DNA of 64,000 nt from Pseudomonadota bacterium (GTDB lineage Bacteria > Pseudomonadota > Alphaproteobacteria > G022571365): positions 3,366 through 67,365 of the forward strand of contig JACZXZ010000007.1 in the NCBI GenBank assembly GCA_022571365.1, in the 5' to 3' direction. The notes beneath the pieces were generated by a model. It worked only from the letters and a program-made list of their open reading frames with translations. It was not told the DNA's origin and did no database searches. The translations under genes were made by a program, and so were the position numbers. Below, one piece after another: positions 3,139 to 53,629 of this stretch; within the stretch, counting starts at the first letter, position 1; each line of letters begins with the position of its first letter.

Positions 3139-4005
3139 ATGTCCGACCACCTATCACGATTTCGCGCAGTGCGGCGGTGGGTTTTGGCGGGCGTCGCGGG
3201 CGCAATCGTGGCCGCGGCGCTGGCCCTCGGGCTGGGCCTCGCCCCGGCGGTTGCGGAAGAGCCCCCGGCCGGCGAGGCGTCGGAACCCTTCCCGCCCTAT
3301 CCTGAGGTGTGGGGCCGGGAGCTGCCCTATCCCGGGGACGGCAGCTATTCCATCCACCAGGAAGTGTTCGAGGCCCCGGACGGCAGGGTGATTGTCAGTA
3401 TCTACGCCAGTCCTCTGCGCTCGGATGAGTTTGAATATCGCGTGTTGGACTTCTTCTCCGGCGAGATGCGGACCATCGACAAAAAGATCTCCTACGACAT
3501 CCGGTCTGGCGGGAAGCACAAGCGCTTGTACGCACTGGATATCGAGCTGGCCGACGGTGGCAGGCTCACATACAAGAGCCACCGGGTTAGTAACTGCACG
3601 GTCACCTACAACATCCATTACGTCAAGCGCGACAGAGATGGAGAGATCGTCGCCGACAAGATGCTGCTCTATCTCTACGACCGGCCCGTGCGCGTCGATG
3701 TCAACCCCTACTGCGAGATCAGTAGCGATCGGGCCCATTTCCACCAGAACTGGCGCCAGGTTGGGCTCGCGTTCGCACCGCTCAAGGACGGGACCTTTCT
3801 TGCTTACGACGGACCTTTCATCATTCGCTTCGATCCGGACCTGAACTCGCCCTTCATCGACAACAAGCGGCTGTTCCTGCTCGACCGGGTGGTGGTGATG
3901 GACCTGGTCGATGAGGCCTTCGCCCGCGATGGACCCAGCCTTCAGAACATCGACGACGTGATTTACGACTATCTCATCAAGCTTAGGGAGGAAGCACACA
4001 AATGA
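3139..4005 (+). CDS. hypothetical secreted/periplasmic protein (288 aa), no recognisable domain
   Basis: Strong SD (AGGAGG at 3127-3132) 6 nt before ATG 3139. N-terminus MSDHLSRFRAVRRWVLAGVAGAIVAAALALGLGLAPAVAEE looks like a signal peptide (possibly Tat, RRW motif). GC ~55% versus ~68% background. Confidence 0.6.
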   Translation: MSDHLSRFRAVRRWVLAGVAGAIVAAALALGLGLAPAVAEEPPAGEASEPFPPYPEVWGRELPYPGDGSYSIHQEVFEAPDGRVIVSIYASPLRSDEFEYRVLDFFSGEMRTIDKKISYDIRSGGKHKRLYALDIELADGGRLTYKSHRVSNCTVTYNIHYVKRDRDGEIVADKMLLYLYDRPVRVDVNPYCEISSDRAHFHQNWRQVGLAFAPLKDGTFLAYDGPFIIRFDPDLNSPFIDNKRLFLLDRVVVMDLVDEAFARDGPSLQNIDDVIYDYLIKLREEAHK

Positions 4006-5471
4006 CCCAGGCCATTAGACCGAAGACGCGGTTTCAAGACTTATTGTTCAAGCATTTCTCGCAAGGCGGCGAGGTCGCGAGCCCGGAGGAGGGCTGGCGG
4101 TTGACCTCTCCGCCCACGCCGAATAGCGGCTATAGCGTCGGCTGGATCCAGCTCGACCTTTCCAGTGCGGATAAGAAAAGTGAATTCGACGCCATCATGG
4201 CCGTTCTCGCCCGCGATCCCGTGCTAAATGAGAATATCGAGGCTATTCGCACAGCGCTGGAGAAGAAGGATGCCGACCTCACGGCGAGCGACAAATCTGT
4301 GATCAAGCAGTATGGCGACCTCATCAACCAGGCGCTGGCGAGCCCGGAAGGGAAGAGGACCCTCGACCAGATCGGGTTTGAGCGGCTGGAGGAGATAGAA
4401 GACGACATAGAGCACTTGAAGAGCATCGCCGGCCCCGAGGCCAAGCCCTTCCTCGAATCCCAGGAGGGCCAACTGCTCATCGCCGATTACATCAACCAGT
4501 TCGGCCCGCCGTCTCCGGACAAGCTCCAAAGATTCGTCCAGGGCGGGGAGGTCGAGCTCAACGACGGCAAGAACAAGATCAAGCTCGACGGCCCGCTGAC
4601 GTTCGAGAAATGGCGGGAGTATGTAGACAAGACACGCTTCGGCGAGAGCCACCCGACCATCATCGACAGCCGTTTCGACAACGTGAAGGACACGCTCGGA
4701 CGACACCGCCTTCTCCCGGACGCGCCGCGCGTCCGTCCGCAAGGCCAGCAGCCGGCCACGCCGTCCGGCGCACCCGGCCAGCGCTCGGGCCTCGAGGAGG
4801 ACAAGGCCGCCGCGCGCGCAGGCTCCGGGGCGGACCTCGCCGCCTCGCCCGAAGGGCGCCGGTTCCTCGCCGCGCTCAAGCCCAAGGCCGGCGAGGAAGT
4901 GGAGGAGGTTCTCTTGAAGCCCGTGAACCAGTGGACCAAAGGAGAGATGGGCGCCCTCATGGACGATCCCGACTACTGGCGGACCGCCGGGCCCCGGGGC
5001 CGGCTCCTGCAGGACAAGGCGCGGGCCTGGCACGACCACTTCTTCGGGACCGGCCCGGCGCCGGAGGACGAGACCGGCCGGATGCTGCCCTCGCGCCCGT
5101 CCCATCCCATCCCCACGGCCCCGGCCCCGGTTCGGGCGGCCGACGGCGGCGACCTTGCCGGTAGCGTGCTCGGCATCGGCAAGCGGGTGCTCGCCGCCGC
5201 GGCCGAGTCGGGCCTGAGTGAAGCGATCAGGGGCCTGCAGGGGGGCCTCAACGGCCTGCAGACCGGCGACCTCAACGGCCTCGCGGGGGTGAGGAGCGGG
5301 GCCATCGGGATGGACCGGCCGGCGCTCGCCGTCGATGGGATCTTCGGACCCAAGACCCGGTGGCGGCTCCGCCAAACCGTGGCCCGCTTCGGCCGGGCTC
5401 CGGTGGAGAAGAGCTTCGCCCGCAGCTTCGCGCGATTCCGCCCCAGCCACCGCCCGGGATCACGGGTCTAA
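4002..5471 (+). CDS. hypothetical protein (489 aa) with Pro/Ala/Gly-rich linker and C-terminal peptidoglycan-binding-like motif
   Basis: ATG overlaps the upstream stop (ATGA), suggesting translational coupling. N-terminal ~230 aa is low-GC and acidic with no known motif. C-terminus has ...LAVDGIFGPKTRWRLRQ..., resembling the DGxFGxxT core of PG_binding_1 domains. No signal peptide seen. Confidence 0.6.
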   Translation: MTQAIRPKTRFQDLLFKHFSQGGEVASPEEGWRLTSPPTPNSGYSVGWIQLDLSSADKKSEFDAIMAVLARDPVLNENIEAIRTALEKKDADLTASDKSVIKQYGDLINQALASPEGKRTLDQIGFERLEEIEDDIEHLKSIAGPEAKPFLESQEGQLLIADYINQFGPPSPDKLQRFVQGGEVELNDGKNKIKLDGPLTFEKWREYVDKTRFGESHPTIIDSRFDNVKDTLGRHRLLPDAPRVRPQGQQPATPSGAPGQRSGLEEDKAAARAGSGADLAASPEGRRFLAALKPKAGEEVEEVLLKPVNQWTKGEMGALMDDPDYWRTAGPRGRLLQDKARAWHDHFFGTGPAPEDETGRMLPSRPSHPIPTAPAPVRAADGGDLAGSVLGIGKRVLAAAAESGLSEAIRGLQGGLNGLQTGDLNGLAGVRSGAIGMDRPALAVDGIFGPKTRWRLRQTVARFGRAPVEKSFARSFARFRPSHRPGSRV

Positions 5472-5889: not shown

Positions 5890-6870
5890 ATGACCGTTCT
5901 GGTAACCGGCGCGGCCGGGTTCATCGGCTTTCATGTCGCGACGGCGCTCTTGAAGCGCGGCGAGCGGGTGATCGGGGTCGACAACCTGAACGACTACTAT
6001 GATGTGGCGCTCAAGCAAGCCCGTCTGGACGGGCTCGCCCGCCACGACAGCTTTGCCTTCCACCGTATCGACATCGCCGACCAGGCGGCGATGGAAGGCC
6101 TCGCCGGGACCTACCCCGACATCACCCGGGTGGTGCACTTGGCCGCCCAGGCGGGGGTGCGGTACTCGCTGACCCATCCCCAGGCCTACATCCACGCCAA
6201 TCTCGAAGGGCATTTCGCGGTGCTCGAGACCTGCCGCCGGCTCGACCGGCTCGAGCATCTGGTCTACGCCAGCTCGTCCACGGTCTATAGCGGCATCACC
6301 AGGCTGCCGTTCTCGATCGAGGAGCGCGTCGACCGGCCGATCTCCCTCTACGCCGCGACCAAGATCTCCGGCGAGCTGATGAGCTATTGCTACAGCCACC
6401 TCTACGGGCTGCCCATGACCGGCTTGAGGTTCTTCACCGCCTACGGGCCCTGGGGCCGGCCCGACCTGTCGGCCTATATCTTCACCCGCCAGATCCTGGC
6501 CGGGGAGCCGATCCAGGTGTTCAACCACGGCGACATGAAGCGGGACTTCACCTATATCGACGACGCGGTGGCCGGTGCGGTGGCTGCCCTCGACCGCCCG
6601 CCGGCGGCCCGGGACGGGGCGGCGCCGCACCGCCTCTACAACCTGGGCAATCACCGGAGCGAGCCGTTGATGCGCTTCATCCAGGTGATCGAGAAGGCGG
6701 TCGGCCGCAAGGCCAAGATCAAGCTGGAGCCCATGCAGCCCGGCGACGCCAAGGAGACCTTCGCCGATATCACCGCCAGCCGGCGCGACCTCGGCTTCAA
6801 CCCGACCACCAACATCGACGAGGGCATCCCCAAGTTCGTGGCCTGGTTCCGCGACTACCACGGGGTCTAG
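5890..6870 (+). CDS. NAD-dependent epimerase/dehydratase (UDP-glucuronate/UDP-sugar 4-epimerase-like)
   Basis: ORF 5821..6870. ATG at 5890 gives MTVLVTGAAGFIGFHVA... (Rossmann GxxGxxG). YxxxK catalytic motif present (YAATKISGE). Confidence 0.85.
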   Translation: MTVLVTGAAGFIGFHVATALLKRGERVIGVDNLNDYYDVALKQARLDGLARHDSFAFHRIDIADQAAMEGLAGTYPDITRVVHLAAQAGVRYSLTHPQAYIHANLEGHFAVLETCRRLDRLEHLVYASSSTVYSGITRLPFSIEERVDRPISLYAATKISGELMSYCYSHLYGLPMTGLRFFTAYGPWGRPDLSAYIFTRQILAGEPIQVFNHGDMKRDFTYIDDAVAGAVAALDRPPAARDGAAPHRLYNLGNHRSEPLMRFIQVIEKAVGRKAKIKLEPMQPGDAKETFADITASRRDLGFNPTTNIDEGIPKFVAWFRDYHGV

Positions 6871-6874
6871 CTGG

Positions 6875-6958
6875 TAGCTGTCAGCCATTAGCCGCTAGCT
6901 ATTAGCCGTTAGCCATTAGCCGTTAGCCGTTAGCTATCAGCGTTCAGCCCTCAGCCTC
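6875..6958. repeat. 12 tandem copies of heptamer (T/C)AGCC(G/A)T
   Basis: Read directly: tagctgt cagccat tagccgc tagctat tagccgt tagccat tagccgt tagccgt tagctat cagcgtt cagccct cagcctc. Confidence 0.85.
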
Positions 6959-7020
6959 ATAAGCCGCCTGCGGAGGCGGCGCTAGCCGCCGCAACCTCAA
7001 AGCTAATAGCTAGCGGCTAA
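6888..7020. repeat. 18-bp perfect inverted repeats (ttagccgctagctattag / ctaatagctagcggctaa) flanking the heptamer array and a GC hairpin (6963-6980)
   Basis: Left arm 6888-6905 is the reverse complement of right arm 7003-7020. Internal hairpin is gccgcc-tgcgga-ggcggc. Lies between convergent epimerase and acyl-CoA ligase genes. Confidence 0.75.
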
Positions 7021-7035
7021 AACGGCCAGGGTTCC

Positions 7036-8829
7036 TCAATCGCCGTAAAGCGCCTCCAGGGCCGCGCCGTAAATCTCTTTGATCTTGTGCCGGCGGATCT
7101 TCAGGGTCGGGGTCAAAAGGCCGTTTTCCATGCCGAACGCCTCCCTTGCCAGCATGAAGCGGCGGACCCGTTCGATTGCGGAGAGGCCGCGGTTGACCCG
7201 CTCGACCGCCGGGGCGATCGCCCGGTGGAACCCGGAATCGCCGGCCAGGGCCGCGAGGCCGGCCGGCCTGCCGTGGGCTTCGGCCCAGCGTCCCATGACC
7301 TCTTCGTCGGGCACGATCAGGGCGACCAGATAGGGCCGGCGGTCGCCGTAGACCATGGCCTGGCTGATCTCCGGCTCGAGCGTGAGCTTGCCTTCGATGC
7401 GCTGGGGCGCGACGTTGTCGCCGCCGGAGTTTACGATGATGTCCTTCTTGCGGTCGGTGATCTGGAGGTAGCCGTCCTCGTCGATGAGCCCGATGTCGCC
7501 GGTATGGAGCCAGCCATCCCGGATCGCCTCCGCGGTCGCGGCATCGTCGCCCCAATAGCCCTGCATGACCAGCTCGCCTCTGACCAGGATCTCGCCGTCC
7601 CCGGCGATCCTGACCTCGACCCCGGTAAACGGCGGGCCGACGGTGTGGAGCTTGACCCGGCCCGGCGGGTTGCAGCTCACCACCGGCGCCGTCTCGGTCT
7701 GGCCGTAGCCCTGCAGGATATTGACGCCGAGCGCGGTGAAGAACAGGCCGATGTCGTAGCTGAGCGGGGCGCCGCCCGAGAGGAAGAATTTGAGCCGGCC
7801 GCCGAAGCGCGCCCTTAAGCGCCGCCGCACCAGGCGGTCGAGGACCGCGTCGACCAAGCGTTCATGCAGGCCAAGGCTCTCCGGCTTCTGGTATTTCCGC
7901 TTGCCCAGCTCGAGGGTCTTGAGAAACAGCTTTTCCTTCACCCCGGCGGCCCGCTCCACGCCGAGCGTGATGCGCTGGTACAGGGTCTCATAGAGGCGCG
8001 GCACCGCCGTCATGATGGTCGGCCGGACCTCGACCATGTTGGCGGCGAGATGCTCCGCCCCCTCGGCGTAGTAAATCTGGGCGCCGATGGTGATCGGGAA
8101 AAACTGCCCCGCGGTATGCTCGTAGGAGTGGCTCAAGGGCAGGAACGAGAGGAAAACCTCTTCGTCCTCGACGATGCCATCGGCGAACGCCTCAAGGGCG
8201 CCCTTGCAGTTGCTCAAAATAGCCCCGTGGCTCAGCATCACCCCCTTGGGCGTGCCGCCGGTGCCGGAGGTGTGGATGATGCAGGCGCTGTCGGTGCGCT
8301 TGAGGCGGGCGACCATGTCGGCGGCGTCGTCGGGCGCATCGCCGCCGCGCGCCAGCACCTCCGCCCAGGGGTGAATCTCGACACCGATATCCTGGCGGAG
8401 CCCGAGCGGCTCCATGGCGACCATGAACTCGAGCCGCGGCGCCCGGCGGGCGGCGTCGAGGAACGGCGGGGCCAGACGCGGGCCCGAGACGATGGCCGCC
8501 TTGGCGCCGCTGTTGGTGAGGACATGCAGGTGGTCGTCCGGCGCGTTGGTGGTGTAGGCCGGCACGGTGATGGCGCCGGCCGCCATGACGGCGACGTCGG
8601 AAATCAGCCATTCGGGGCGATTCTCGGCGATGAGCGCGACCCGGTCCCCGGGGCCGATGCCGAGGGCCCTCAGGCCCCGAGACAGGCGGCTGGCTTCGGC
8701 CGCGGCCTGGCGCCAGGACAGCGGCCGGTACCGGCCGTCGCGCTTGGCCCACAGGAACGGGCGGTCGCCGAGCCGGGCCGCCTGATCGAACAGCATCCGA
8801 GGGAGATTGGCGCAGGAGTCCGGGTTCAT
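7036..8829 (-). CDS. long-chain-fatty-acid--CoA ligase (AMP-dependent synthetase/ligase family)
   Basis: 597-aa ORF with AMP-binding motifs (IIHTSGTGGTPKGVMLSH, YGQTE, GWLHTGDIG). Confidence 0.85.
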   Translation of the reverse strand: MNPDSCANLPRMLFDQAARLGDRPFLWAKRDGRYRPLSWRQAAAEASRLSRGLRALGIGPGDRVALIAENRPEWLISDVAVMAAGAITVPAYTTNAPDDHLHVLTNSGAKAAIVSGPRLAPPFLDAARRAPRLEFMVAMEPLGLRQDIGVEIHPWAEVLARGGDAPDDAADMVARLKRTDSACIIHTSGTGGTPKGVMLSHGAILSNCKGALEAFADGIVEDEEVFLSFLPLSHSYEHTAGQFFPITIGAQIYYAEGAEHLAANMVEVRPTIMTAVPRLYETLYQRITLGVERAAGVKEKLFLKTLELGKRKYQKPESLGLHERLVDAVLDRLVRRRLRARFGGRLKFFLSGGAPLSYDIGLFFTALGVNILQGYGQTETAPVVSCNPPGRVKLHTVGPPFTGVEVRIAGDGEILVRGELVMQGYWGDDAATAEAIRDGWLHTGDIGLIDEDGYLQITDRKKDIIVNSGGDNVAPQRIEGKLTLEPEISQAMVYGDRRPYLVALIVPDEEVMGRWAEAHGRPAGLAALAGDSGFHRAIAPAVERVNRGLSAIERVRRFMLAREAFGMENGLLTPTLKIRRHKIKEIYGAALEALYGD

Positions 8830-12405: not shown

Positions 12406-13596
12406 ATGAAGATCGCCATAGTGAGGGAACGGCGCCGGGGCGAGCTGCGCGTCGCGGCCTCGCCCGACACCGTGAAAAAGCTCACCCGTTTGGGCGCCGA
12501 GGTGATCGTCGAGACGGGCGCCGGCGAGGGTGCCGCCTTTCCCGACGAGGCCTTTGTTGAGGCCGGCGCGACCATCGCCGAAGAGGAGAAGGCGGCGCTA
12601 GAGGAAGCCGACATCGTGCTCAAGGTGCAGCGGCCGCTGGCCGCGGCCGAGGGCGGCCCGGACGAGCTCGCGCTGATGAAGCCGGGCGCCATCCTGATCG
12701 GCTTGCTCGCGCCCTACGCCGACCACGGCGCCGCAGAGGCCTATGCCGAGCGCAGGCTCACGGCCTTTGCGCTCGAGCTCATGCCGCGCATTTCCCGGGC
12801 CCAGTCCATGGACGCGCTCTCGTCCCAGTCGAACCTGACCGGCTACCAGGCGGTGATCGACGCGGCGGCGGTCTTCGGCAGCGTCATGCCGATGATGATG
12901 ACGGCGGCGGGCACGGTCCCGCCGGCCCGGGTGTTGGTGCTCGGCGCCGGGGTCGCCGGGCTTCAGGCGATCGCCACGGCCCGGCGGCTGGGGGCGGTGG
13001 TCTCGGCCTTCGACGTCCGCCCGGCCGTCAAGGAGGAGGTGGAGAGCCTGGGCGCGGTGTTCATCGAGGTGGAATCGGCGGAGGCGGCCGAGACCAAGGG
13101 CGGCTACGCCCGGGAGATGAGCGCGGACTACCGGCGGCGCCAGACCGAGCGGGTCCACGAGATGCTCAAGACCCAGGACATCGCCATCTGCACGGCGCTC
13201 ATTCCGGGCCGACCGGCGCCGGTTTTGATCACCGGGGCGATGGTCAGGGACATGAAGCCGGGCTCGGTCATCGTCGACCTCGCCGTCAATGAGGGCGGCA
13301 ACTGCGAGCTCTCGGAGCCCGGCAAGGTGGTCCGCAAACACGGGGTCACGATCCTGGGCCATGAAAATGTGCCGAGCCGCGTCGCCACCGACGCCAGCGC
13401 GCTTTACGCGCGCAACCTGCTCAACTTCCTGACCCCGTTCTTCGACGCGGAAACGGGAGAGTTCAAGATTGATTGGGAGGACGAGATCGTCAAGCAAACC
13501 CTGCTCACGCGGGACGGTGCGATCGTTCGCCCGGCACCGGCCGGTAAAGGGGCGCCGACCGGTAAAGGGGCGCCGACCGGTAAAGGAGAGTCGTGA
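12406..13596 (+). CDS. pntAA: NAD(P) transhydrogenase alpha subunit, part 1 (dI domain)
   Basis: 396-aa ORF with alanine-dehydrogenase/PNT fold and Rossmann [23 protein letters not shown]-terminal GKGAPT repeats. Confidence 0.9.
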
Positions 13597-24772: not shown

Positions 24773-24853
24773 GCCGTCACCCGCCGCGCGCAAGTTCATG
24801 CCGTCACCCGCCGCGCGCGAGTTCATGCCGTCACCCGCCGCGCGCAAGCTCAT
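24773..24853. repeat. 27-bp tandem repeat x3 (gccgtcacccgccgcgcgcaagttcat) plus 10-bp partial copies upstream
   Basis: Copies at 24773-24799, 24800-24826 and 24827-24853, 1-2 mismatches each. Third copy contains the rlmB stop and last six codons. Confidence 0.85.
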
Positions 24854-26068: not shown

Positions 26069-27307
26069 AGCGATGGCGAAGAAAGCGAAATTTGAGCGGA
26101 CGAAGCCGCACTGCAATGTTGGGACGATAGGCCATGTAGATCATGGCAAGACGACGTTGACGTCGGCGATTACGAAGCTGTTGGCGGCGACGGGTGGGGC
26201 TGAGTTCATCCCGTTTGGGGAGATTGACAAGGCGCCGGAGGAGAAGGCTCGGGGGATCACGATTGCCACGGCGCATGTGGAATACGAGACCGAGCGGCGG
26301 CATTACGCCCATGTGGACTGTCCGGGTCACGCCGATTATGTGAAGAACATGATCACGGGGGCGGCGCAGATGGACGGGGCGGTTTTGGTGGTTTCGGCGG
26401 CGGACGGTCCGATGCCGCAGACCCGGGAGCACATTCTGTTGGCGCGCCAGGTGGGGGTTCCGGCGATTGTTGTTTATCTGAACAAGGTGGACACGGTTGA
26501 CGACCCGGAGCTGTTGGAATTGGTTGAGCTTGAGATCCGGGAGCTGCTCACCTCCTATGATTTTCCGGGGGACGATATACCGGTTGTGAAGGGCTCGGCG
26601 CTGGCGGCGTTGGAAGGTGGGGACAAGACTCTGGGCGAGGACTCGGTGGTGGCGTTGTTGGCGGCGATTGACGACTACATTCCCCAGCCGGACCGTGCGA
26701 AGGACCGGCCGTTTTTGATGCCGATTGAGGATGTGTTCTCGATCTCGGGCCGGGGCACGGTTGTGACCGGCCGGATCGAGCGCGGGGTTGTGAAGGTTGG
26801 CGACGAGGTTGAGATTATCGGCATCCGGGAGACCCAGAAGACGATCTGTACCGGGGTGGAGATGTTCCGCAAGCTTCTCGACCGGGGGGAGGCGGGGGAC
26901 AATGTTGGCTGTCTTCTCCGGGGCGTGGGCCGGGACGAGGTGGAGCGGGGCCAGGTGTTGGCGGCGCCGGGGTCGATCACGCCGCACACCAAGTTCACGT
27001 GCGAGGCCTATATTCTGACCAAGGAGGAGGGCGGGCGGCACACGCCGTTTTTCACCAACTACCGGCCCCAGTTCTACTTCCGCACCACGGACGTGACCGG
27101 GCGGGTTGCCCTGCCGGAGGGGACGGAGATGGTGATGCCGGGGGACAACGTGTCGATGGAGGTTGAGCTGATCGCCCCGATTGCGATGGACGAAGGGCTC
27201 CGCTTCGCGATCCGCGAGGGCGGGCGCACGGTCGGGGCCGGCGTCGTCGCCTCCATCATCGAGTAGAACCTCGAATAGCGGGAAAAGGTTAAAAGGTTAA
27301 AGGGCGA
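26069..27307 (+). repeat. 1239-bp near-identical duplicate of 42763..44001 (tuf plus 41 bp of 3' flank)
   Basis: Single mismatch (26090 vs 42784). Identity extends 4 bp upstream of ATG and 41 bp past the stop (aacctcgaatagcgggaaaaggttaaaaggttaaagggcga). Confidence 0.9.
26073..27266 (+). CDS. tuf: elongation factor Tu (copy 1)
   Basis: 397-aa EF-Tu ([18 protein letters not shown]). Confidence 0.97.
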
Positions 27308-42716: not shown

Positions 42717-42766
42717 CGGCCTTTTCAGATTCTTAACTGGAGCATCCGAGGACGGAGAACACAGCG

Positions 42767-43960
42767 ATGGCGAAGAAAGCGAAGTTTGAGCGGACGAAGC
42801 CGCACTGCAATGTTGGGACGATAGGCCATGTAGATCATGGCAAGACGACGTTGACGTCGGCGATTACGAAGCTGTTGGCGGCGACGGGTGGGGCTGAGTT
42901 CATCCCGTTTGGGGAGATTGACAAGGCGCCGGAGGAGAAGGCTCGGGGGATCACGATTGCCACGGCGCATGTGGAATACGAGACCGAGCGGCGGCATTAC
43001 GCCCATGTGGACTGTCCGGGTCACGCCGATTATGTGAAGAACATGATCACGGGGGCGGCGCAGATGGACGGGGCGGTTTTGGTGGTTTCGGCGGCGGACG
43101 GTCCGATGCCGCAGACCCGGGAGCACATTCTGTTGGCGCGCCAGGTGGGGGTTCCGGCGATTGTTGTTTATCTGAACAAGGTGGACACGGTTGACGACCC
43201 GGAGCTGTTGGAATTGGTTGAGCTTGAGATCCGGGAGCTGCTCACCTCCTATGATTTTCCGGGGGACGATATACCGGTTGTGAAGGGCTCGGCGCTGGCG
43301 GCGTTGGAAGGTGGGGACAAGACTCTGGGCGAGGACTCGGTGGTGGCGTTGTTGGCGGCGATTGACGACTACATTCCCCAGCCGGACCGTGCGAAGGACC
43401 GGCCGTTTTTGATGCCGATTGAGGATGTGTTCTCGATCTCGGGCCGGGGCACGGTTGTGACCGGCCGGATCGAGCGCGGGGTTGTGAAGGTTGGCGACGA
43501 GGTTGAGATTATCGGCATCCGGGAGACCCAGAAGACGATCTGTACCGGGGTGGAGATGTTCCGCAAGCTTCTCGACCGGGGGGAGGCGGGGGACAATGTT
43601 GGCTGTCTTCTCCGGGGCGTGGGCCGGGACGAGGTGGAGCGGGGCCAGGTGTTGGCGGCGCCGGGGTCGATCACGCCGCACACCAAGTTCACGTGCGAGG
43701 CCTATATTCTGACCAAGGAGGAGGGCGGGCGGCACACGCCGTTTTTCACCAACTACCGGCCCCAGTTCTACTTCCGCACCACGGACGTGACCGGGCGGGT
43801 TGCCCTGCCGGAGGGGACGGAGATGGTGATGCCGGGGGACAACGTGTCGATGGAGGTTGAGCTGATCGCCCCGATTGCGATGGACGAAGGGCTCCGCTTC
43901 GCGATCCGCGAGGGCGGGCGCACGGTCGGGGCCGGCGTCGTCGCCTCCATCATCGAGTAG
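42767..43960 (+). CDS. tuf: elongation factor Tu (copy 2)
   Basis: Protein identical to copy 1. Nucleotide differs at one synonymous site (42784 g vs 26090 a). Confidence 0.97.
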
Positions 43961-50492: not shown

Positions 50493-50798
50493 ATGGCAAA
50501 GGTGAGTGCTGTCGAGAAAAATAGGAAACGCAAGCGCCTGGTTGAGAAATACACGGCCAAGCGTGCCCGGCTGAAGGCGATCGCGTGCGACCTGTCGCTG
50601 CCGTCCGAGGAGCGTTTTCTCGCGCGGCTGAAGCTGGCCAAGCTGCCGCGCAATTCCTCGCCGGTCAGGGTGCGCAACCGGTGTGATCTCACCGGCCGTC
50701 CGCGCGGCTTCTACCGCAAGTTCAGGTTATCGCGCATTGCGCTCAGGGAGCTTGCCAGCTCCGGACAGATCCCCGGCATGGTCAAGTCGAGCTGGTAG
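50493..50798 (+). CDS. rpsN: 30S ribosomal protein S14
   Basis: [20 protein letters not shown]... Confidence 0.93.
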
Positions 50799-50925
50799 GC
50801 GAGGTCTCAAGCCATGACTATGAGCGATACCGTGGGGGACATGCTGACGCGTCTCAGAAGTAGGCGAGGTTTCAAGCCATGACTATGAGCGATACCGTGG
50901 GGGACATGCTGACGCGTATCAGAAA
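50796..50925 (+). repeat. 65-bp tandem duplication (2 copies, 3 mismatches) spanning the rpsN stop, SD and first 14 codons of rpsH
   Basis: Copy 1 50796-50860, copy 2 50861-50925. Both begin with 'taggcgaggtNtcaagccatgactatgagcgataccgtgggggacatgctgacgcgt'. Confidence 0.85.
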
Positions 50926-52954: not shown

Positions 52955-52972
52955 GGCCTGGTGGAGGAACCC

Positions 52973-53629
52973 GTGAAGCTGAACGAACTATCGGACAAAC
53001 CGGGGGCCCGCAAGGCGCGCACGCGCGTCGGGCGCGGCATCGGCTCGGGCAAGGGCAAGACCTCGGGGCGCGGCCACAAGGGCCAGAAGTCGCGCAGCGG
53101 TGTTGCCATCAGGGGCTTCGAAGGCGGGCAGATGCCGATCTATCGCCGGCTGCCGGGGCGCGGCTTCAAAAATCCCTTCGCCAAACGCTTCCAGGTGGTC
53201 AACCTCGACCGGCTTCAACGGGCGATCGAGGCCGGCAAGCTGGATGCCAACAATCCGGTGACGGTCGAGGCCATGCGCGCGGCCGGTCTGGTGCGCAGGG
53301 TGCGCGACGGCGTGCGGCTACTTGCAAAGGGCGAGCTCAGGTCCAAAGTAACGATTGAAGTCACCGGCGCTTCCAAGGCCGCGGTGGCCGCCGTGGAGAA
53401 GGCCGGGGGCAAGGTCGTGCTGCCCGAACCCGCGCCTTCCCCCGACAAGCCCAAGGCCGGCAGGGGCGCCGAAGTCGAGCCCAAGGACGATAAGGGCGCC
53501 GAAGTCGAGCCCAAGGACGGCAAGGGCGCCGAAGTCAAGCCCAAGGCCGGCAAGGACGCCGAAGTCAAGCCCAAGGCCGGCAAGGACGCCGAAGTCAAGC
53601 CCAAGGACGATAAGGGCGCCGAAGCTTAA
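52973..53629 (+). CDS. rplO: 50S ribosomal protein L15 with ~70-aa repetitive Lys/Glu-rich C-terminal extension
   Basis: GTG 52973 with GGAGG 5 nt upstream. [28 protein letters not shown]... Core ~150 aa followed by (AEVxPKxGKG) x5 encoded by 30-bp tandem repeats. Confidence 0.88.

Follow-up and report, generated by a model that had tools for sequence, protein, structure and literature searches.

What kind of DNA fills the gap between two genes that end facing each other, when that gap consists of one short motif repeated many times? The question is raised by a 64,000-nucleotide (nt) stretch of an alphaproteobacterial genome (Pseudomonadota bacterium, GenBank assembly GCA_022571365.1, contig JACZXZ010000007.1, positions 3,366 to 67,365 of the forward strand), which was analysed as a whole and is called the window from here on. 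In the window, a gene coding for a sugar epimerase and another coding for an acyl-CoA ligase are separated by 165 nt, and a stem-loop built of heptamers fills this entire spacer. An earlier note, made from the letters alone, had described the two genes as convergent, which the Pfam matches and the ORF (open reading frame) coordinates bear out, and had likened the DNA between them to a mobile element or a bidirectional terminator. The element is a heptamer microsatellite, that is, DNA of an already known kind, with a paired 'zipper hairpin' layout. It is probably a lineage-specific, hypervariable heptanucleotide simple sequence repeat (SSR) of the unit TTAGCYR, in which a forward array, a GC core hairpin and a short inverted array follow one another, and its favoured role is that of a hairpin at the 3' ends of both genes.

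The forward array, read directly from the window sequence, is composed of 13 head-to-tail heptamers (6868-6958), namely TAGCTGG TAGCTGT CAGCCAT TAGCCGC TAGCTAT TAGCCGT TAGCCAT TAGCCGT TAGCCGT TAGCTAT CAGCGTT CAGCCCT CAGCCTC. The earlier note had counted 12 consecutive units of the form YAGCCRT from 6875; the heptamers are indeed consecutive, but they are 13 and start at 6868, and an exact YAGCCRT is found in only five of those 12. A safe consensus for the array is YAGCYNN, with a better conserved centre, TAGCYRT, and the unit can also be written as TTAGCYR. The first TAG of the array (6868-6870) is the stop codon of the epimerase gene. For positions 6875-6934, Tandem Repeats Finder (TRF) reported periods of 7 nt (8.6 copies, 75% matches) and 14 nt (84% matches), and it saw the array with a period of 21 nt as well. 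Three successive YAGCYNN units have 13 matches in the window, all of them at this locus, whereas 0.16 are expected from shuffles, and the pattern TAGCCGTTAGCCRT (with up to two mismatches) has eight matches in the 64 kb against 0.25 expected. The 7-nt copies thus stand head to tail beyond chance, as in a heptamer SSR, and they occupy a non-coding intergenic site between the stop codons at 6870 and 7036. Nine TAG triplets spaced at 7-nt steps run through all three frames, as had been noticed before, and the opposite strand behaves likewise with TAA, so that stops close all six reading frames across the spacer.

Only 4 nt separate the end of the array from a GC hairpin, H1, which lies at 6963-6980 exactly as the earlier note had placed it. 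The perfect inverted repeat reported around these features is perfect indeed (6888-6906 and 7002-7020, 100% complementary), but it measures 19 bp rather than 18. It is not a separate flanking feature either: its right arm is made of three of the array's own heptamers in reverse orientation, the partners of units 4-6 in the forward array. Four other registers of the left array can pair with this arm as well, at 78-89% complementarity, and the stop codon of the ligase gene is found 15 nt beyond the arm. Since forward and inverted arrays surround a GC core (GGCGGCGCTAGCCGCCGC), the whole 165-nt spacer can zip into one stem-loop on either strand. For both strands the predicted fold is a long stem with the GC hairpin as its cap (-76 and -82 kcal/mol), and its stability exceeds that of shuffled sequences in both cases (z -3.6 and -3.0). 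The earlier view that this is not random spacer DNA holds. The features of the locus are as follows (L numbers designate contigs and loci compared with the window).

5890-6870, forward strand: gene for a NAD-dependent sugar epimerase/dehydratase of 326 amino acids (Pfam PF01370, E=1e-50, and PF16363, Epimerase/GDP_Man_Dehyd; ORF list).
6868-6958, forward strand: forward heptamer array of 13 YAGCYNN units, the core units being TAGCCGT, TAGCCAT and TAGCTAT (sequence, TRF, pattern matches).
6888-6906, forward strand: left arm of the 19-bp inverted repeat, formed by units 4-6 and including the atypical TAGCCGC (100% complementary pair).
6907-7001: inter-arm segment, carrying AACCTCAAA as well as the distal heptamers and the GC hairpins; it has the opposite orientation in L012 and L264.
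6963-6980: GC hairpin H1, GCCGCC-TGCGGA-GGCGGC, with a 6-bp stem and a 6-nt loop (sequence, folding).
6976-6992: alternative GC hairpin H2, GCGGCG-CTAGC-CGCCGC, which overlaps H1, the two being mutually exclusive (sequence; partly an inverted-repeat pair).
6999-7020, reverse strand: inverted heptamer arm reading TAGCCGC TAGCTAT TAGCTTT, which holds the right arm (7002-7020) and is preceded by AACCTCAAA.
6875-7006: 132-nt stretch absent in L263, bounded by direct TAGCT repeats at 6875-6879 and 7007-7011.
7036-8829, reverse strand: gene for a long-chain acyl-CoA ligase (AMP-binding; Pfam PF00501, E=4e-79), convergent with the epimerase gene.

The spacer was extracted from about 25 contigs of strains that are 96-100% identical in the flanking genes. 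The exact epimerase protein is present on 22 contigs, and the exact epimerase and ligase are encoded on many metagenome contigs and also on the metagenome-assembled genome (MAG) GCA_022560825.1; the nearest named homologues of the ligase belong to MAGs of Alphaproteobacteria/Rhodospirillales. In the main clade, the flanks differ at no more than 20 of 4575 nt. Ten contigs of this clade share the layout of the window and its 165-nt spacer, with point changes in single units. In L003, also of the main clade, the right arm is replaced by GCTAATGGCTAATGGCTAA, and the inverted arm is likewise replaced by GCTAATGGCTAATGGCTAA in contigs L575-L579. The main-clade contig L012 carries the inter-arm segment flipped, together with the loss of two left units (-14 nt) and a few substitutions. 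An allele with eight forward units, exactly 35 nt shorter, was found (via protein P0122) in five contigs of another study that belong to the same 90%-identity ligase cluster, and it is identical in the five samples. A second subclade has flanks 96-98% identical to those of the window; in it L264 is flipped, L265 and L266 are in the forward orientation, and L263 has a spacer of 33 nt that lacks exactly the 132 nt between the direct TAGCT repeats at 6875 and 7007. What remains in L263, TTTAGCTGG-TAGCTA-CCGGCTAAA, is a 9-bp hairpin. The unit strings of L266 and L003 differ from that of the window, and the loop of H1 can be TGCGGA, CGCGGA or CGCGGC depending on the strain. Folding predicts a stem-loop across the spacer in every allele, the minimal one of 33 nt included.

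Close strains therefore differ in copy number by whole units, as is usual for heptamer SSRs (13 versus 8 units, and -14 nt in L012). The suspicion that the array is prone to slippage is borne out, since strains with at least 99.5% identical flanks carry either 13 or 8 forward units and the sequences of the units vary as well. The earlier note had also held that the absence of other copies in the genome together with an identical copy number across strains would reduce the locus to a simple terminator spacer; the repeat number is not identical, and on this count the observation stands. Because of the repeat, metagenome assemblies break or carry runs of N at the spacer. Four assemblies do so: L265 and L266 stop within the array, and there are N-gaps at the repeat in L011 (1336-1467) and L574 (3294-3467). 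In the L574 scaffold, 10 N link a left half of forward type with a right half of flipped type, which could reflect a mixture of strains or a longer palindrome. As both orientations exist in both subclades, there must have been at least two inversions of the core or an exchange of alleles between strains. In more distant relatives with a 68% identical ligase, the epimerase-ligase pair is conserved, but the spacer is unrelated and devoid of heptamers, indicating that the array is young and lineage-specific. The relatives recovered with P0009 have a different neighbour (SET-domain genes) and are uninformative with respect to the spacer.

The gain or loss of whole units (13 to 8, or minus 2) is the signature of slippage. 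It is known that an imperfect palindrome can become perfect when one arm is copied from the other, that segments between inverted repeats invert, and that short direct repeats can mediate the loss of a hairpin lying between them. Each of these outcomes is found among these strains, a likeness in mechanism rather than in family that is drawn from the comparison of alleles. At the locus, replication slippage would change the number of units; template switching, or recombination of one inverted arm with the other, would flip the core and homogenise the arms; and the 132-nt deletion would arise by slipped mispairing across the hairpin base. Homogenisation of the arms by template switching or recombination would explain why they are perfect over 19 bp, down to the atypical TAGCCGC. 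We therefore infer, from allele sequences, that template switching or recombination at a quasipalindrome may be the source of the flip, the perfect arms and the deletion. Three processes (slippage, homogenisation or inversion of arms, and hairpin deletion) could thus be followed at one small locus in strains 96-100% identical in the flanking genes. The repeat accounts for the 165-nt spacer and provides a fast-evolving strain marker.

With respect to function, the element is located in the 3' untranslated region (UTR) of both genes. The hairpin would act there as a structure of the transcript 3' end, by opposing read-through into the facing gene and/or by protecting the transcript from 3' exonucleases. 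This 3'-UTR position, the presence of a hairpin in all alleles and the occurrence of TAG or TAA in all frames favour a structural role at the 3' end, which appears to be the most likely one, although our confidence in it is modest and it is the weakest step of the explanation. As L263 can dispense with the element and sister genera lack it, it may just as well be nearly neutral DNA, tolerated only in places that need no promoter. A consensus scan found no sigma-70-like promoter at the locus. Searches of Rfam 15 at the gathering score gave no match at the locus and nothing but tRNAs in the whole window; a sub-threshold match to Flavobacterium-1 (6750-7150) scored 14.6 bits against a gathering score of 58.9 and was discarded as noise.

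The same unit occurs well beyond this lineage. A 21-nt pattern of three TAGCYRT units, scanned over species-representative genomes, matched at least 120 stretches, about 17 being expected by chance according to our own estimate, which assumes uniform base composition. The matches listed come from Bacteroidota, Gemmatimonadota, Acidobacteriota, Cyanobacteria, Clostridia, Desulfobacterota, Chloroflexota, Planctomycetota, Saccharibacteria and two archaeal MAGs, and there are isolates of Maribacter, Hymenobacter and Dyadobacter among them. Many of these listed matches show the layout of forward array, short spacer and inverted array, such as L020 (3170-3400), L021 (7099-7227) and L026 (4955-5010), and further such loci are L050 (6795-6995), L111 (6341-6420) and L121 (1550-1660). 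The unit was compared with six control heptamers, searched for in viral contigs only, an inverted partner being defined as at least two units within 300 nt. The number of viral-contig stretches of three units, and the proportion of loci having an inverted partner, are given below.

TAGCYRT (target): 61 stretches; inverted partner in 36% of viral loci, and in 29% of genome loci among the matches listed.
TGACYRT: 47 stretches; inverted partner in 0%.
TACGYRT: 21 stretches; inverted partner in 10%.
TGGCYRT: 36 stretches; inverted partner in 3%.
TCAGYRT: 45 stretches; inverted partner in 9%.
TAACYRT: 99 stretches; inverted partner in 4%.
TAGTYRT: at least 120 stretches; inverted partner in 3% among the matches listed.

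The abundance of TTAGCYR is not special, since its 61 viral stretches fall within the range of the controls (from 21 to more than 120). Its pairing is another matter: Fisher tests of the target versus four pooled controls gave p ~2e-8 for the viral loci and ~4e-8 for the genome loci among the matches listed. The control set included heptamers with a palindromic core and heptamers with stops on both strands, and the rates of TACGYRT (10%) and TGGCYRT (3%) weaken the idea that a palindromic core alone causes the pairing. There is also a preferred topology. Among the matches listed, the paired arrays (L014-L194) have the arrangement 5'-TTAGCYR..YRGCTAA-3' 28 times and its mirror image five times, whereas hairpin potential alone predicts 1:1. 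The median spacer of paired arrays measures about 40 nt, and these spacers fold by themselves. According to crude ORF calls, 76 genomic TTAGCYR elements among the matches listed lie between genes that are divergent (6), convergent (19) or in tandem (51).

Two phage contigs of 57-58% GC carry the layout as a repeated cassette, consisting of four to five TTAGCTR units, TTTG, GCGCGC, a loop, GCGCGC, AAGTAACTT and four to five YAGCTAA units. The cassette is present at most of the array-bearing gene junctions listed in both contigs: L185, L187, L144 and L169 in IMGVR_UViG_3300021255_003533, and L168, L182, L189 and L190 in IMGVR_UViG_3300028833_000521. Where the flanks were read, it stands between a stop codon and the next Shine-Dalgarno/ATG, and in that phage case it is thus inside polycistronic transcripts. 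A BLAST comparison of one cassette-rich phage contig with GenBank phages found no relative, and 18 related hairpin-array loci had no Rfam match at the gathering threshold. Integron attC sites were considered and rejected on inspection, as RYYYAAC/GTTRRRY fits TTAGCYR in neither topology.

Two further observations concern these loci. Unrelated heptamer arrays often adjoin the TTAGCYR arrays (CAGTGRT in L014, TAAATCG in L031, CACCTGT in L050, CAAAAAC in L096, GGACTGG in L110, TCTCAAT in L128 and CAATCAA in L043), and 7 nt is by far the commonest tandem-repeat period at the loci listed (359 of 1012 TRF rows).

Several points weigh against a slippage-driven SSR with a role at the 3' ends. L263 gets by with 33 nt of the element and distant relatives with none of it, which makes it dispensable. 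Any role at the RNA level would be read from the sequence. The bidirectional terminator of the earlier note survives as far as stable hairpins on both strands in every allele are concerned, H1 (6963-6980) and the outer arm stem being GC-rich stem-loops of the required kind; nevertheless, no U-rich tract follows the stem on either strand (the tails are GGCGGC-GCUAGCC on the forward and GGCGGC-UUAUGAGG on the reverse strand), there is no terminator-like site in 6000-8000, and the element is not a canonical intrinsic terminator. Across 60 kb of the window, terminator-like sites are not above shuffles and such a scan has little power in this genome; as canonical terminators are nowhere enriched in the window, the absence of a U-tract is uninformative. 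With respect to the mutational history, some of the apparent inversions could come from recombination between strains or from mixed assemblies instead of being separate events. Finally, slippage alone fails to explain that the unit pairs with an inverted array 8-11 times more often than control heptamers, and the 28:5 bias towards TTAGC..GCTAA is left equally unaccounted for.

According to the best of the alternatives, TTAGCYR 'zipper hairpin' cassettes are a distinct functional class, read by a conserved protein or RNase and serving as intergenic insulators or processing sites, and the element of the window would represent it in the Alphaproteobacteria. The reader might be, for example, a double-strand-specific RNase acting on intercistronic hairpins or a ring-shaped RNA-binding protein recognising UAG every 7 nt. 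HutP binds UAG triplets 4 nt apart, and the transcript of the forward array resembles the sites of HutP and TRAP in having a UAG every 7 nt. This is a resemblance only: there are 13 units here versus 3+3, they lie in a 3' UTR and not in a leader, and such a protein is not known from this lineage, no search for one having been made. A functional class would fit the presence of at least 120 stretches over many phyla, isolates included, where about 17 are expected by chance, as well as the pairing of 29% of genome loci (among the matches listed) and 36% of viral loci against 0-10% for the six controls, the 28:5 topology (among the matches listed), the self-folding spacers of about 40 nt, and the cassettes at most of the array-bearing junctions listed in two phage contigs. 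However, the unit itself is not unusually abundant, the core sequences vary by host, about two thirds of the arrays have no partner, and no binding protein or co-occurring gene was identified. Moreover, the element proves dispensable in L263 and is missing from close genera, the controls were drawn solely from viral contigs, and the unit holds or nears the palindrome TAGCTA, so that its mutational origin could be biased without any function. We consider such a class, with either kind of reader, improbable.

A slightly less doubtful form of the idea, though still an unlikely one, is that head-to-head TTAGCYR arrays with a short foldable spacer between them constitute a coherent, undescribed intergenic class, spread over many bacterial phyla and some phages, at many gene junctions of which it stands, with a preferred topology and a specific molecular reader such as a dsRNA-specific RNase or a repeat-binding protein. 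If this were true, the self-complementary unit would be a built-in hotspot for inversion and deletion, and the element of the window would be the first example from the Alphaproteobacteria, found in the act of flipping inside a natural population. That the pairing of TTAGCYR is about tenfold commoner than that of comparable heptamers, with a preferred topology, from distant phyla to phages, suggests either a specific route of mutation that depends on the near-palindromic unit or an intergenic RNA/DNA signal not recognised so far. No description of the paired-cassette layout recurring with TTAGCYR was found in the searchable literature or in Rfam.

The proposal of the earlier note, a MITE (miniature inverted-repeat transposable element) or an element of the repetitive extragenic palindrome (REP)/bacterial interspersed mosaic element (BIME) type, has a low probability. 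In this reading, the 132 nt between the TAGCT repeats would be a non-autonomous insertion and L263 would represent the empty site. What differs between strains is exactly the stretch between two TAGCT pentamers; the position is intergenic, the ends are inverted, as in a MITE, and match perfectly over 19 bp, and cassettes of similar layout are multi-copy in two phage contigs. There is even a GTAG tetranucleotide at 6873-6876, and such tetranucleotides are found at the heads of REPs. Yet the TAGCT that would be the target site duplication (TSD) belongs to the repeat unit itself, so that a 'TSD' is expected by chance. The supposed empty site of L263 retains two forward and one to two inverted units as a hairpin, which a deletion fits better, and the supposed terminal inverted repeats are a microsatellite in two orientations whose arms range from 3 to 13 units between strains. 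Heptamer patterns revealed a single locus with this unit in the 64 kb and the flanks fetched around the strain loci, without a second copy of the element. The central 22-mer has two exact but unrelated matches in metagenome contigs of JGI, a collection that does not include the source organism, and dispersed copies with a conserved internal sequence were found neither in the window nor in the strain loci or the JGI contigs. No transposase or recombinase is encoded within 10 kb on either side. REP/BIME families have more than 100 copies and a REP-associated tyrosine transposase (RAYT); here there is one locus in 64 kb and no RAYT among the called neighbours, a genome-wide search for RAYT not having been made. 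The element shares with REPs, BIMEs and MITEs that it is small, palindromic, intergenic DNA of the sort often lying between convergent genes, and REPs can stabilise the mRNA upstream of them. It differs from these families, which have many dispersed copies of a conserved sequence and, in the case of REPs, a RAYT (PMC2817692), in that neither copies nor a conserved core were found.

Even less probable is a programmed invertible switch (inverton), in which a recombinase would flip the core and thereby alter the expression of a neighbouring gene. As in invertons, the segment is bracketed by perfect inverted repeats and both orientations exist in natural populations: they occur between strains with at least 99.5% identical flanks and again in the second subclade, and the L574 scaffold mixes both in one sample. 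Unlike invertons, this segment contains no promoter-like (sigma-70-like) site, and it sits between two 3' ends, where it is not obvious what its orientation could act on. Within 10 kb on either side no Pfam domain of an invertase or recombinase is found, the neighbours being metabolic or hypothetical. The flipped alleles also carry unit losses and substitutions, as would be expected of rare evolutionary events and not of rapid switching, and the hairpins are nearly symmetric, so flipping changes little. An artefact of short-read metagenome assembly at the repeat, to which the breaks and N-runs of several assemblies might point, is hardly credible, because at least 10 contigs, which differ in sample, study and assembler, yielded the same 165-nt sequence independently, five samples share one identical 8-unit allele, and the inverted allele appears in two unrelated assemblies with allele-specific substitutions; each allele is reproduced by independent assemblies.

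The heptamer SSR reading places the element among repeats of a well-populated kind. Heptanucleotides are the most over-represented long SSR in prokaryotic intergenic DNA and slippage has been proposed for them, as far as Mrazek 2007 is reported in PMC4679880 and PMC4692102. Named examples include GGGACCG and MTYCTGA of Geobacter (PMC2700814). The cyanobacterial heptamers of Calothrix and Nostoc known as short tandemly repeated repetitive sequences (STRRs), which count among the long simple sequence repeats (LSSRs) of prokaryotes, share with the element, in the accounts that those citing papers give, the 7-nt head-to-tail arrangement, intergenic position, degeneracy, length polymorphism and origin by slippage. 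However, STRR-rich genomes have many arrays, whereas here there is one in 64 kb, to which an inverted arm and a core hairpin are joined. TTAGCYR is not named in any searchable paper on heptamer repeats; searches by sequence string likewise found no searchable paper that prints TTAGCYR arrays, 7-mer queries being swamped by primers.

The GGGAATC repeat of Xanthomonas forms intergenic arrays of 2-26 units, about 185 per genome, and inverted pairs of it have been noted (Rehm et al. 2015, PMC4692102). It resembles the element in its variation in length and sequence between close species, and the two arrays of the inverted pair given as an example are in convergent orientation and could form a stem-loop or cruciform (PMC4692102). 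It differs in being G-rich, a G-quadruplex having been proposed, and pairing is occasional in it and not dominant (PMC4692102). TAACTGA, present in Beggiatoaceae, Cyanobacteria and Bacteroidetes, occurs in 169 direct sets and one indirect (MacGregor 2015, PMC4679880). Like TTAGCYR, it is a stop-containing intergenic heptamer, patchily distributed over distant phyla and of unknown function (PMC4679880). However, TAACTGA is mostly located just upstream of starts and is a proposed translational regulator (PMC4679880), whereas the element described here is paired and stands at 3' ends.

Some minor observations were made along the way. An unrelated metagenome contig (L272, 2270-2450; JAEEGL010714696.1) shares 25 nt, GGCGGCGCTAGCCGCCGCAACCTCA, with the core of the element, and its tandem GC hairpins, separated by AACCTCA, may represent a small REP-like hairpin family. 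Two of the relatives with a 68% identical ligase (L267, 4066-4322, and L268, 4288-4555) have about 130 near-identical nt in the spacer downstream of the ligase gene, TAGCCCTGGAAC..GGCAAAGGCGCTGAGGCGCC.., which may represent conserved non-coding DNA or else a small gene that lacks annotation. Upstream of the epimerase gene, an ORF of 489 amino acids without a Pfam match (4002-5471, forward strand) is intact in the window and in L006 (8113-9582) and is called as two genes (382 and 101 amino acids) in L004, L005 and L007 (8180-9582), which suggests a frameshift polymorphism.

Other repeats are present elsewhere in the window. A 65-nt tandem duplication with 96% identity (50795-50924) is found at the rpsN/rpsH junction; it doubles the region where the ribosome binds and the initial codons for ribosomal protein S8, and it could be real or an assembly artefact. 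ORF 52961-53629, read as ribosomal protein L15 from its position before secY, contains six in-frame 30-nt repeats (53446-53624) that encode C-terminal decapeptides similar to KPK(D/A)GKGAEV. Two stretches 16.7 kb apart (26069-26368 and 42763-43062) form a perfect direct repeat at least 300 nt long, probably a duplicated gene such as tuf; smaller motifs are shared at 26539/43233 and 27283/43977. Other tandem repeats are those at 24773-24853 (three copies of 27 nt, 94% matches) and 13533-13586 (three copies of 18 nt, 94% matches).

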